In this document: one piece after another, positions 24,001 through 30,000 of the stretch
Layout: the number at the start of each line of letters is the position of its first letter
How positions within the stretch are numbered: position 1 is the stretch's first letter
Program-made: the position numbers
DNA from: a virus
Taxonomy: Duplodnaviria; Heunggongvirae; Uroviricota; Caudoviricetes
DNA: 52,839 bases
Reading direction: 5' to 3' (one strand)
Virus record (IMG/VR): IMGVR_UViG_2880372215_000003

Positions 24001-27000
24001 AGGAGGCTGATGTGACTCTTAAACGGGCCTGTTCCCTGCTGACGGTGAAATCCTTCAGTGAGGATGAACGGGTGATCACCGGGATTGCGTCAACGCCTTC
24101 TCCGGATCGGGATGGTGACATCCTGGAGCCGGAGGGCGCGGAGTTTGGCAGTGCGATCCCGTTTCTCTGGCAGCATGACCATTCCCGCCCGGTGGGGCAG
24201 TGTACGGTGCGCCGGGTCAGCGAAGGGCTGGAAATCACGGCAACACTGGTGAAGCCCGTACCGGATATGCCGTCGCAACTGGCTGCCCGGCTGGATGAGG
24301 TCTGGGCGGCCATTAAGACCGGGCTGGTCAGGGGGCTGTCCGTGGGCTTCCGTCCCCATGAATACACCTTTCTGGACGGAGGCGGACTGCATTTTCTGCG
24401 CTGGGAACTGATGGAGGTGTCTGCCGTCACCGTGCCCGCGAATGCGGAATGCACCATCCGGACCATTAAATCTTACGACCGCCCGTTTTCTGCCGCGTCC
24501 GGCAACCGGAAACCGGTGGTGAAAATCGCATCTTCTGCCGGCGCTGCGGCACAGTCAACAACCGTTTTTCATAAGGAAAAGACCATAATGAATATTGGCG
24601 AACAGATTAAAAGTTTTGAAAACAAGCGTGCAGCGCTGGCAGCCTCCCTTGAGGAGGTCATGACCAAAGCCGCAGAGGAAGGGCGCACGCTGGATGTGGA
24701 GGAGGAAGAGCATTACGACAACACCGCAGCGGAAATCCGTCAGGTGGATGCGCACCTGAAGCGCCTGCGTGAACTGGAAGCCGGTAAGGCCGCCACGGCG
24801 CAGCCGGTGAAACAGGCCGGTAACGGGAATGTGGCCGCGGTGGCTTCTGCGCCGGTGATCCGTGTGGAGCAGAAACTGGATAAGGGGATTGGCTTCGCCC
24901 GCTTTGCCAAATCGCTGGCTGCGGCTAAAGGCGTCCGATCTGAAGCCCTGGAAGTGGCCCGTCGTCAGTATCCGGATGACAGTCGTCTGCATCATGTCCT
25001 GAAATCGGCAGTGGGCGCGGGGACCACCACGGATCCGCAGTGGGCAGGCAGCCTGTCTGAATATCAGGAATACGCACAGGACTTTATTGATTACCTGCGT
25101 CCGCAGACCATTATCGGGCGATTTGGTCAGGGCGGGATCCCTGCACTTCGTCAGGTGCCATTCAATATCCGTGTGCACGCCCAGGTGTCCGGCGGTGCTG
25201 CCGGCTGGGTGGGTGAGGGTAAGGCAAAACCCCTGACGAAGTTTGATTTTGAATCCATCACCTTCAGTCATGCGAAGGTGTCGGCCATTGCGGTACTGAC
25301 GGAAGAATTGATCCGTTTTTCCAGTCCGGCTGCTGATGCACTGGTCCGTAATGCGCTGGCGGAAGCGGTGGTGGCGCGTCTGGATACAGACTTTGTGGAC
25401 CCGAAAAAAGCCGCAGTGGCAGATGTCTCCCCGGCGTCCATCACCCATGATGTGAAGGGCACGGCATCAACCGGTAACCCGGATGCGGATGCCGAGGCTG
25501 CGTTTGGACAGTTTGTGGCAGCAAACCTGCAGCCCACCGGTGCGGTCTGGCTGATGTCCAGCACCAATGCCCTGGCACTGTCCATGCGTAAAAATGCGCT
25601 GGGTCAGAAGGAATACCCGGACATGACCCTGCTGGGTGGCTCCTTCCAGGGGCTGCCGGTGATTGTCTCCCAGTACGTGGGTGACCAGCTGGTGCTGGTG
25701 AATGCCCCGGATATTTATCTGGCGGATGACGGCGGCGTGGCAGTGGATATGTCCCGCGAGGCATCACTGGAAATGCAGTCTGAGCCGGGCGGCGACAGTA
25801 CCACGCCGTCCCCGGTGGAGCTGGTTTCCATGTTCCAGACAGGCAGCGTGGCCATCCGTGCGGAGCGCTGGATCAACTGGCGTCGTCGCCGTACTGCGGC
25901 GGTGGCGGTGATCACCGGAGTGAACTACGGCAGTGCGTCCGGCGGCTGAGTCTGATAAGGAGGACGGGAGGCGTGCGCCTCCCGTAACAGGTTATGGCAA
26001 AGATCCGATATCTGCAGGGCACGCATGATGCCCGGGCCGGGGATATCCGTGATGTGGCACAGCCGTGTGCGGAGGTGCTGGTTCGCCTGGGGAAGGCGGA
26101 GTACATCACAGCGCGACGTCCGGCAGGTCAGAAAAAGAAACGTGATGCGGAGCATGGCGAATGTGGAACCTTTTGCGGCGAACCCGAAAAAACCAGAAAT
26201 CAGGACGTGACGTAAGAGAAGTGGGCTGGCGGTCCCTGTTTCAGGCGGTGGCTGAGCCTTTTGCCGGTGCCTGGCAGCAGGGGGTGAAAGCCGATCCGGA
26301 AACCGTTTTGTCCTTTCACGCGGTGTTTTCATGCATTTCGCTGATATCCCAGGATATTGCCAAAATGCGGCTTCGCCTGATGCAGACTGATGTACAGGGA
26401 ATACGCCGGGAAAAGCGGCAGGGAGATACTGCCCGTCTCTGTCGTCGTCCTAATGCGCAGCAGAATCGCATCCAGTTTTTTGAACTGTGGCTGAATTCCA
26501 AATTGCGTCACGGCAATACGGTGGTGCTGAAAATCCGCACCCCCCGGGGGCAGATCAAAGAACTGCGTATTCTGGACTGGAACCGGGTTGAACCTCTGGT
26601 GGCGGATGACGGCGAGGTGTTCTACCGCATCACGCCGGACCGGAACTGTGGGATCACAGAGTCGGTGACGGTGCCTGCCCGGGAGGTGATCCACGACCGT
26701 TTTAACTGTTTTTTTCATCCGCTTGTGGGGCTGCCGCCGGTGTATGCCGCAGGACTGGCCGCCATGCAGGGGCATCATATTCAGGCAAATTCGACGTATT
26801 TTTTCAGAAATGGCGGGCGACCATCAGGCGTGATTGAGGTCCCCGGCAGTATTACGGAAGAAAACGCGAAAAAACTGAAGGGGAACTGGGACAGCGGATA
26901 TACGGGCGAAAATGCCGGGAAGACGGCCATACTGAGCAACGGGGCAAAATACAGCCCCACGACGTTTTCACCGGTGGATGCGCAGACGGTGGAACAACTG

Positions 27001-30000
27001 AAAATGACGGCTGAAATTGTCTGTTCGGTGTTCCGTGTCCCGGCCTACAAGATTGGCGTTGGCCACCCGCCTTCCAGTGACAACGTGGAGGCGCTGGAGC
27101 AGCAGTATTATTCCCAGTGTCTGCAGACGCTGATTGAGTCCATTGAACTGTTACTGGATGAGGCGCTGGAAACGGGGGAAAACGAGAGTACAGAATTTGA
27201 TGTCACCACGCTGCTGAGAATGGACAGTGAGCGGCGCATGAAAACGCTGGGGATGCGGTGAAAAATACGCTTCTCACGCCCAATGAGGCCCGTAAACGGG
27301 AGAACCTGCCGCCCCTGGCCGGCGGTGATGCACTGTATCTTCAGCAGCAGAACTACAGTCTGGAGGCGCTGTCCCGTCGTGATGCCCGTGAGGATCCGTT
27401 CGCGTCTGCCGGGAAAACAGTTTCATCACAGCTGCCTGACGGCGCATCTGACGGTAATAAGGCAATCAGTGAAACAGAGCATGATGCGGTGAAAGCGATG
27501 TTCAGGGGGATACTGAGAAAATGACGGAACGGGAACTGTCCATTATTCGTGCACTGGGAGAAGAATTTTCCACAGTGCTGGCGGATTTACAGCGCACATT
27601 TGAGGGGAAGATGGCCTCGCAGGCACAAGCGTTTGAAGAGAAACTGACTTCCCTGTCGGCGGTATTACAGAAGCATGTGACGGTGGATGAGGTGCGTCCG
27701 GTTCTGCAGGCGATGGTGGATGACGCTGTGGGGGCCATTCCGGTACCGCGTGATGGTCGTGATTATGATCCGGATGTACTGCAGCAGGCGGTGAATGATG
27801 CGGTCGCAAATATTCCGCAGCCGGCGGACGGTAAAAGTCTCACCCCGGATGATGTGCGTCCGATGCTTGAACAGATGGTGAAGGAGGCTGTAAGCCATAT
27901 CCCTGTTCCGCGTGATGGTCGTGACTACGATCCGGAAGTACTGCAGAAGGCGGTGAATGATGCGGTCGCAAATATTCCGCAGCCGGCGGACGGTAAAAGT
28001 CTCACCCCGGATGATGTGCGTCCGATGCTTGAACAGATGGTGAAGGAGGCGGTAAGCCATATCCCTGTTCCGCGCGACGGTCGTGACTATGATCCGGAAG
28101 TACTGCAGAAGGCGGTGAATGATGCGGTCGCAAATATTCCGCAGCCGGCAGACGGTAAAAGTCTCACCCCGGATGATGTGCGTCCGATGCTTGAACAGAT
28201 GGTGAAGGAGGCGGTAAGCCATATTCCTGTTCCGCGTGATGGTCGTGACTACGATCCGGATGTTCTGCAGAAGGCGGTTCTGGATGCGGTGAGTGCCCTG
28301 CCGGCTCCGCAGGACGGGCGTGATGCCACGGCACTGGAAATACTCCCCGCCATTGACGATCAAAAATCCTTTCCCCGGGGCACGTATGCCACACACCAGG
28401 GCGGACTCTGGCGGGCGTATGAAAAAACGCACGGGATGCGGGGATGGGAATGCCTGGTTGACGGGGTGGCGGATATTGACGTCAGCATGACGGGTGAGCG
28501 GTTGTTCTCTGTGGTGGTCCGGCAGAGCAGTGGCCAGCGTACGGAAAAAACATTTTCCCTGCCGGTGATGCTCTACCGCGGTGTGTTCAGAGCCGGTGAA
28601 ACCTACCACCCCGGCGATACGGTGACGTGGGGGGGCTCGCTGTGGCACTGCAACAGTATGACCGAAGATAAACCCGGAGAAGCTCATTCATCAGCCTGGA
28701 CCCTGGCTGCAAAACGTGGGCGGGATGCAGGAGGCTGAAAATGACGGCATTACTGACACTGGAAGAGATCAAGGCACATCTGCGTGTCGACCATGACGCG
28801 GATGATGACATGCTGATGGACAAGGTTCGTCAGGCTACCGCCGTGCTGCTGGCCTACATTCAGGGCAGCCGGGATAAGGTGATTCGTGAGGACGGTGAAC
28901 TGATCCCGGGCGAGGCATTAACCCGGATGAAGGGGGCTGCCATGCGACTGACCGGGATGCTGTACCGGAATCCGGATCTTGCGGAGCGGGAAGAACTGAT
29001 TCAGGGGGAGCTGCCGTTTTCTGTTTCCGTGCTGATTTACGATTTGCGTTGTCCGACGGTGTTATGAGGAGGGGGAATGGCAATATCTGCAGGTCGTCTG
29101 ACACAGATGATAAGTGTTCTGAACCCGGTGTTAACCCGTAACGCTGCCGGAGAAATGACGGAAGAATGGGTGTCATGCGGGAAAATTCATGCGGATATCC
29201 GGGGCAGGAGCAGCCGGGAGCGGATGCAGTCCGGTGCGGAAATGGCGCAGGCGGAAATCCGCATCTGGGTGCGCGGTCAGTCCGGTCGGGAAATCACGGC
29301 AGCGTCACGACTTCATGTGCTGAGTGGTCCCTGGCGTGACCGGATCCTGAACGTTGTCGGGCTGCCCGTGCCGGATGCGACCGGCGGACGTCTGGAAATT
29401 CTCTGTCGGCTGGGAGGGGAAAAATGATCGAAACCCTGCTGGATTTTTCGGGGCTGGAGGACATCAGCCGCGATTTGCAGCTTCTGAGTGGTGCGGAAAA
29501 TAACCGGGTGCTGCGTGAGGCAACCCGTGCGGGTGCGAATGTGCTGAAAGAAGAAGTGGTGTCACGGGCACCGGTACGCAGGGGAAAACTGCGCCGCAAT
29601 GTGGTGGTCCTTTCCCGGCGCTCCCGCGATGGCGGGATGGAATCCGGTGTCCATATCCGTGGTGTTAATCCGGACACCGGTAACAGCGATAACACCATGA
29701 AGGCGGATAACCCGCGCAATGCTTTCTACTGGCGGTTTGTGGAAATGGGGACCGTGAATATGCCACCGCACCCGTTTGTGCGCCCGGCGTTTGATGTGCG
29801 CAGTGAACAGGCAGCTCAGGTGGCGATTGCGCGGATGAACCGGGCCATTGATGAGGTACTGAGACGATGACGGAGGCGGATTTGTATCCTTATCTGGCGC
29901 ATCTTGCCGGCGGGCAGGTGTACCCGTATGTGGTCCCCCTGCTGGATGGCAGGCCGTCGGTGGCGCTTCCGTGGGTGGTTTTCAGCCTGATTTCATCGGT

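Follow-up and report, generated by a model that had tools for sequence, protein, structure and literature searches.

A capsid-before-portal head module of the Sakai Sp12 prophage type, with a portal gene interrupted at a homopolymer run

We analysed the head-gene region of a 52,839-nucleotide (nt) stretch of DNA (the window), the Caudoviricetes record IMGVR_UViG_2880372215_000003 in IMG/VR, in which a protease-capsid fusion gene follows the gene for the terminase large subunit (TerL) and the portal gene comes after it. Taken together, the data make it very probable that this region belongs to the late operon of a lambdoid prophage of the Sakai Sp12 type from Escherichia coli O157:H7 and forms its head module, and that the break in the portal gene is most likely an artefact. 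Comparison with deposited sequences indicates that the capsid comes before the portal as a rule in a phage group that has been described and is abundant; this order is already known and present in RefSeq annotation. The features that carry this reading are the following, where aa stands for amino acids and ORF for open reading frame.

24012-25949, plus strand: gene for a fusion of prohead protease, scaffold-like linker and HK97-fold major capsid protein; GTG start, 645 aa, after TerL
26161-27261, plus strand: 5' fragment of the portal gene, 366 aa; Pfam Phage_portal 246 bits, phrog_2271 positions 1-364
27258-27524, plus strand, -1 frame: 3' fragment of the portal gene, 88 aa; phrog_2271 positions 367-451
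27249-27252, plus strand: frameshift site 1, four G (G4) in the window and G5 or GGGTG in relatives
27505-27509, plus strand: poly-G tract where the portal gene meets the downstream ORF (site 2), G5 in the window, the two-gene allele
NC_002695.2 2204089-2255027: reference Sakai Sp12, with genes ECs_2252 to ECs_2244 as the head block

Positions 1-32603 and 32598-48024 of the window align to prophage Sp12 of E. coli O157:H7 Sakai, and the alignment of positions 1-29494 contained no substitution. Sp12 is the same element: its gene order is identical, and it shares the 645-aa fusion, the hairpin behind it and the small ORF with the window. Seven homopolymer runs are one base longer in Sp12, where the portal gene (ECs_2248) is a single intact ORF of 859 aa and the endolysin gene is intact. 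Nucleotide identity to phage 2851 was 98.8% over 7.4 kb. From the terminase small subunit (TerS) gene to the tail terminator, the late region is colinear with the annotated gene tables of Sakai Sp10 and Sp12, 2851, BP-4795 and YYZ-2008, which places it in the Pankowvirus / Marienburgvirus type of head module. Sp12 has been described as a defective prophage with a disrupted integrase and repressor, for which excision is impossible (PMC2669165).

On the plus strand, the window carries TerS, TerL, the protease-capsid fusion, a 73-aa ORF, the split portal gene, a 405-aa ORF and head-tail joining genes, and does not follow the typical (though not defining) order TerL, portal, protease, capsid. The genes around the fusion and the portal are listed below.

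21727-22290, plus strand: terminase small subunit gene; Pfam Terminase_2, phrog_641 (expect value, E, 2e-68); corresponds to Sakai ECs_2252
22287-23948, plus strand: terminase large subunit gene; Pfam TerL_ATPase and TerL_nuclease, phrog_9 and phrog_7622
25994-26215, plus strand: small conserved ORF of 73 aa in the interval between capsid and portal; in E. coli, its last 55 nt overlap the start of the portal gene
27521-28738, plus strand: downstream ORF of 405 aa; phrog_2271 positions 455-859; free-standing in the G5 allele of site 2, C-terminal half of an 859-aa protein in the G6 allele
28741-30211, plus strand: head-tail joining genes; Pfam Phage_connect_1, Phage_HCP, HK97-gp10_like and Tail_completion_gp17, with matching PHROGs
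28741-29067, plus strand: Ad1 adaptor
29077-29427, plus strand: head closure protein
29424-29870, plus strand: gp10-like protein
29867-30211, plus strand: tail terminator

The same order is annotated in the 95 phage records that are at least 90% identical from TerS to Ad1 (including 2851, YYZ-2008, BP-4795, JLK-2012 and 1717), and likewise in WGPS4 and in Sakai prophages Sp12 and Sp10. The segment from capsid to portal was found in 1246 of 5426 complete E. coli genomes, with a median of five matching places per genome; in IMG/VR, 94 contigs carried both genes, always with the capsid before the portal and usually with 215 nt between them. The closest relatives among Shiga toxin (Stx) phages, namely 2851 and YYZ-2008 (Pankowvirus), BP-4795 and JLK-2012 (Marienburgvirus) and Stx2 phage 1717, are 96-99% identical to the window at the nucleotide level from TerS to Ad1 and share the succession TerS, TerL, protease-capsid fusion, small ORF, portal and connectors. 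They differ at the junction poly-G, where 2851 and YYZ-2008 have one fused gene (859-861 aa), BP-4795 is split into 454 and 461 aa and JLK-2012, as annotated, into 451 and 407 aa; the number of 54-aa repeats is also variable. At 39-70% protein identity the order is still kept in Salmonella phage FSL SP-016, Burkholderia phage vB_FUB47a and Ralstonia phage YO182_2. Moraxella phage Mcat11, which gave a weak protease match, was rejected as a relative of the arrangement: it has the canonical HK97 order and serves as a contrast.

The original prediction had offered two ways to account for this order, a less common head-module arrangement or an error in one of the family assignments. The first describes the window well when it is set against HK97, but within its own lineage the arrangement is the rule. 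The order being standard in the described group of 2851, YYZ-2008, BP-4795 and JLK-2012, an outcome that the original prediction had itself named as its refutation, a synteny comparison of the kind proposed with the prediction disposed of the view that it is unusual. Literature searches turned up no explicit treatment of the gene order or of the portal split, only a general remark that the head regions of Sakai Sp6, Sp9, Sp10 and Sp12 are organised slightly differently from that of lambda (Asadulghani et al. 2009, PMC2669165).

In the sequence as written the portal core is truncated, and the interval 26161-27524, which had been predicted to be the portal gene, is two ORFs. An HK97-family portal does follow the fusion; the predicted interval reads through a frameshift. 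ORFs 26161-27261, 27258-27524 and 27521-28738 lie in successively shifted frames, and all of them fall on one PHROG profile, phrog_2271 'portal protein'. Family membership is clear by profile, and the gene as written is split at 27249-27252. The conserved portal motif at the C-terminus lies in the 88-aa fragment behind the split, where it aligns with HK97 gp3; the intact Sakai portal aligned to gp3 across site 1 without a break, up to this motif (27% identity, E 8e-21). An alignment of the portal genes of the window, 2851, JLK-2012, WGPS4, Sakai Sp12, strain 143, BP-4795 and YYZ-2008 contained two one-base deletions, both in G runs, at sites 1 and 2. The site-1 deletion is not present in 2851, YYZ-2008, BP-4795, JLK-2012 or 1717, and exact-pattern scans of IMG/VR found the window's allele in no contig and the G5 allele in 75.

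Site 1 belongs to a series of seven one-base deletions that separate positions 1-29494 of the window from Sakai Sp12.

14539, 15274, 15449, 18616, 21446, 27249-27252 and 27505-27509: one-base deletions relative to Sakai Sp12, mostly in G runs

All seven fall in homopolymers of at least five bases, and the same alignment contained no insertion. The runs hit were five of 27 G runs, one of eight C runs, one of 76 T runs and none of 90 A runs. The deletion in the G run at about 18616 splits the endolysin gene (18448-18980; Sakai ECs_2259, 177 aa) into ORFs 18448-18648 and 18645-18980. Since only deletions were found, with a bias of strand and base and without substitutions, and since the site-1 allele is private to the window, the site-1 deletion is likely to be an artefact of sequencing or assembly (homopolymer under-calling), in which case the true portal gene would be intact. 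Further along the window, an eighth one-base deletion relative to Sp12 was observed in a T run at 39637.

Two points weigh against a technical origin. Sp12 is already defective (PMC2669165), so that real decay is possible; and RefSeq strain 143, of the same haplotype, independently has G5 at site 2 and is annotated as 'frameshifted'. The frameshifts could accordingly be real, slipped-strand mutations in G runs having killed the portal and endolysin genes in the course of defective-prophage decay. In a prophage that does not excise, with its integrase and repressor disrupted (PMC2669165), selection on virion genes may be relaxed. Strain 143 shares one of the two portal frameshifts, its portal being called 'frameshifted' by the Prokaryotic Genome Annotation Pipeline, and pseudogenised TerL or portal genes occur in other deposited relatives (WGPS4 and F349). 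We nevertheless consider this explanation unlikely: seven deletions with neither insertions nor substitutions in 29.5 kb form a spectrum unlike that of natural mutation, the losses cluster in the G runs of one strand and spare the A runs, and none of the 75 IMG/VR contigs with the site-1 sequence carries the window's allele.

Site 2 occurs in two states. The G5 state was found in BP-4795, JLK-2012, WGPS4, strain 143 and the window, with the same two-gene layout in Sakai Sp10; the G6 state was found in Sakai Sp12, 2851 and YYZ-2008. Exact-pattern scans of IMG/VR detected G5 in 76 contigs and G6 in 41. With G5 the portal ends at about 451-454 aa and the downstream 405-aa ORF starts at an overlapping ATGA, whereas with G6 the two are joined into 859-861 aa. 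The two genes are ORF58 and ORF59 in BP-4795 and ECs_1974 and ECs_1975 in Sakai Sp10; JLK-2012 and the diverged Salmonella phage FSL SP-016 are in this split state as well. Because the state was constant within 69 of 71 flanking haplotypes and mixed in the remaining two, the data point to site 2 being a real, old two-allele site and not a fast switch. The G5 allele would give a portal of about 454 aa and a translationally coupled 405-aa repeat protein (through the ATGA overlap), and the G6 allele one protein of 859 aa. As G6 is the usual state in the Sakai Sp12 haplotype (four of five copies), the G5 of the window may also be an error, although it matches a natural allele; it is this state that yields exactly the portal end at 27524 given in the original prediction.

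Sakai itself carries both states of site 2, split in Sp10 and fused in Sp12. In Table 1 of PMC2669165, the portal and head of Sp12 are scored as defective ('D') and those of Sp10 as intact, with no reason stated. The visible difference between the two prophages is the fused portal of Sp12 against the split portal of Sp10; their capsid fusion genes are equal in length.

The poly-G tracts might instead be functional switches, with programmed frameshifting or phase-variable slippage setting the ratio of plain to fused portal. Both alleles are common in IMG/VR, and each is represented among phage or prophage records submitted as complete, G5 by BP-4795 and Sakai Sp10 and G6 by 2851 and YYZ-2008; the downstream ORF is open in both states, and its ATG is retained in the fused form as an in-frame methionine codon. 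The stability with which haplotypes hold their allele speaks against rapid switching. Programmed -1 frameshift sites combine a canonical X XXY YYZ slippery heptamer with a downstream stimulator, and the zero-frame sequence TTC AGG GGG ATA contains no such heptamer. In Salmonella phage FSL SP-016, moreover, the portal and the downstream gene are plainly separate. On balance we regard such functional switching as very improbable. A maintained genetic switch at the junction poly-G, by which a plain portal with a free fibre protein (repeats and a CBM5/12-like domain) would alternate with a portal-tethered module, seems to us somewhat less remote, but still improbable. A comparable case is the portal-MuF fusion of Arthrobacter cluster AK phages, where the gene directly 3' of the portal is fused to it in some phages and separate in others (PMC5513430). 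The 405-aa module of the window differs in having no Mu F match, and in its helical 54-aa repeats and CBM5/12-like beta domain.

This module contains a tandem repeat at 27746-28278 with a period of 162 nt (54 aa) and 3.3 copies. In 46 of 54 complete G5 contigs the downstream ORF was open, with lengths of 245, 299, 353, 405, 407, 461 and 515 aa, and the length steps of 54 aa correspond to the 162-nt repeat. Its conserved C-terminal 144 aa matched 5390 representative clusters (E <= 1e-3), mostly at the end of free-standing proteins of 200-500 aa. CBM_5_12 scored 21.1 bits on the module, below the cut-off; its relative P0128 scored above the cut-off and has collagen repeats, and another relative, P0143, is a further portal fusion of 1237 aa. 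NCBIfam and Pfam otherwise gave only sub-threshold matches of the low-complexity type, a sequence search of the PDB returned nothing credible (best E 0.095), and a homologue search with the module retrieved little beyond partial E. coli 'portal' entries that are nearly identical to it. The same search displayed PF28083 as a precomputed Pfam accession, for which the local copy of Pfam gave no match. AlphaFold2 on the 405-aa ORF, with an alignment of four sequences, gave a mean predicted local distance difference test score of 43 and a predicted template modelling score of 0.24, an unusable model that is indicative only. With low confidence, the prediction suggests that a long helix at the N-terminus is followed by helix-loop repeats and then by a C-terminal domain rich in beta structure. 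The module looks like a stalk-and-knob fibre. The module is altogether absent from the Burkholderia and Ralstonia phages.

The protein encoded upstream of the portal was assigned by profile. Its residues 48-152 matched Peptidase_S78 (34.7 bits in Pfam; cut-off 21) and residues 386-635 matched Phage_capsid (52.7 bits; cut-off 24.2), the HK97 major capsid model TIGR01554 scored 78.3 bits (cut-off 27.5), and phrog_617 was covered from end to end (E 3e-261). The 645-aa protease-capsid fusion after TerL in the original prediction is thereby confirmed, and the module has both the S78 prohead protease domain and, by profile, the HK97-family major capsid protein of an HK97-type head module. By BLASTP the protease part is 29% identical to HK97 gp4 (E 4e-8); Ser110 aligns with gp4 Ser114, and His55 lies one column off gp4 His65. 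We take Ser114 and His65 of gp4 to be the catalytic residues. The HK97 prohead protease model TIGR01543 scored 46 bits, below its cut-off of 59, which weighs against the assignment of the protease part.

Comparison of the gene with its relatives indicates that the fusion is real. Sakai Sp10 and Sp12, 2851, BP-4795, YYZ-2008 and Salmonella phage FSL SP-016 all encode the fusion as a single ORF of 644-645 aa; Burkholderia phage vB_FUB47a differs in having protease (212 aa) and capsid (444 aa) as two adjoining genes. An origin of the fusion by homopolymer error was rejected on the grounds of these single ORFs and of the gene having no indel relative to Sakai. Maturation protease and major capsid protein are also made as one polypeptide in actinobacteriophages, where such fusions have been described in Arthrobacter (clusters AM, AU and AN) and Rhodococcus (RRH1) phages (PMC5513430). 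NCBIfam NF045541, the 'prohead protease/major capsid protein fusion protein', embodies the same concept and is not the family of the window protein, which scored 54 bits, over the protease-linker part only, against a cut-off of 525. The window fusion and the NF045541 and actinobacteriophage fusions appear to have independent origins. In the Sp12 lineage, protease, coiled-coil scaffold-like linker and capsid are produced as one polypeptide of 645 aa, and, by what is known of HK97, the fusion would co-assemble round a portal dodecamer, after which the N-terminal protease would cut off itself and the linker to give the mature shell. This auto-processing is proposed by analogy.

For the portal, TIGR01537 scored 362 bits on the intact Sakai protein, and for the N-terminal half of the fused form a sequence search of the PDB returned only portals, with 9lbn at E 4e-27 and 8cez, the portal of HK97, at E 2e-17. 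A mis-called capsid or portal behind the apparent change of order can be dismissed: a direct comparison of the capsid half with HK97 gp5 by BLASTP was not significant (E 0.64), but the profiles are decisive for both genes, the capsid matching Phage_capsid, TIGR01554 and phrog_617 and the portal matching Phage_portal, TIGR01537 and phrog_2271, and the PDB matches and database annotations are concordant. All three families for which the original prediction had proposed profile searches (portal, S78 protease and HK97 capsid) were matched, and its suspicion of a wrong family assignment was unfounded.

Seen against HK97 (gp1 to gp7), the module has in common the S78 protease, the HK97-fold capsid with an N-terminal assembly domain, the HK97-family portal, connectors like gp6, gp7 and gp10, and a capsid gene followed by a hairpin or terminator; the joining genes at 28741-30211 are ordered as in HK97 from gp6 onward. 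HK97 differs in its order TerS, TerL, portal, protease, capsid, in having protease and capsid as separate genes, and in lacking the small ORF and the 405-aa module after the portal, and its capsid is too diverged for BLASTP. In the window, the small ORF between capsid and portal had no family match. The annotations of Sakai (ECs_5451), BP-4795 (ORF57) and YYZ-2008 (YYZ_gp53) list its product as hypothetical, and it is 58% identical to an ORF of FSL SP-016 and 27% identical to a Burkholderia ORF at the same position, where the Ralstonia phage has an ORF of 58 aa.

Two hairpins flank the fusion gene.

25964-25985, plus strand: GC-rich hairpin 15 nt past the capsid stop; stem of 9 base pairs, loop of 4 nt
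23973-24000, plus strand: terminator-like hairpin and T run in the interval between TerL and the capsid gene, within the late operon; in the pattern scan, a stem of 7 base pairs and then TTTTATTTTC

The first is the hairpin that had been predicted between the capsid stop and the portal gene, and it stood up to analysis: its centroid energy was -18.9 kcal/mol, with z = -2.6 in a 50-nt frame and equally good folds in three of 200 shuffles. As a Rho-independent terminator it has the GC-rich stem-loop and lacks the U-rich tract directly 3' of it; the sequence 3' of the stem reads AACAGGTTATGG. Rfam gave no family between 21 and 30 kb of the window. FSL SP-016 and Burkholderia vB_FUB47a have hairpins of unrelated sequence at the same position after the capsid stop, and HK97 has an annotated putative terminator directly after gp5; we take the post-capsid hairpin to be a conserved feature of such modules. 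Because its position is kept in relatives with diverged sequence, and because of the HK97 terminator, the most likely role that we infer for it is that of an mRNA 3' stabiliser or partial attenuator, which would allow capsid (hundreds of copies per head) to be made in excess over portal (12 copies). Against this stand the lower significance in a 61-nt frame with more flank (z only -1.4) and the absence of a T/U tract 3' of the hairpin, together with a terminator scan that did not report it. The hairpin at 23973-24000 was, on its own, not significant against shuffles (z = -0.33); a hairpin with a U run is also found at the position between TerL and capsid in Salmonella phage FSL SP-016.

Outside the head module, the tail region (29495-32582) is a mosaic variant relative to Sakai Sp12. 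The aligned mosaic patch, 29495-32603, contains many substitutions and small indels; it covers the genes for the tail terminator, the major tail protein and the chaperone and extends into the beginning of the tape-measure gene. At about position 32600 the window lacks about 388 bp of Sakai, and the tape-measure protein has 949 aa in the window against 1080 aa. Similarity to Sp12 stops at 48024, and the final 4.8 kb (48024-52839) have a lower GC content of 0.39-0.44. Above the gathering score, Rfam identified DicF, sok antitoxin RNA, three tRNAs (the ileZ / argN / argO cluster of Sakai Sp12) and STnc100.

4223-4274 (minus strand), 11120-11294, 14210-14456 and 15235-15406: Rfam matches

Collectively, the gene order has little discovery value: this is the normal head module of heavily sequenced E. 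coli O157 prophages and Stx phages. As the homopolymer deletions break real genes (the portal twice and the endolysin once), ORF-based readings of the window need to be checked against a reference. The 405-aa protein is a putative fibre that might repay a structural look, and the 859-aa 'portal' of many records is in fact a portal and a separate, widespread repeat/knob protein, joined or separated by a one-base poly-G polymorphism. If the maintained switch at the junction were true, one allele would place twelve copies of the module covalently on the portal C-terminus, and related Stx-type phages would have structurally different portal vertices; the module would then either extend the portal internally or form a type of neck fibre so far undescribed for lambdoid siphophages.

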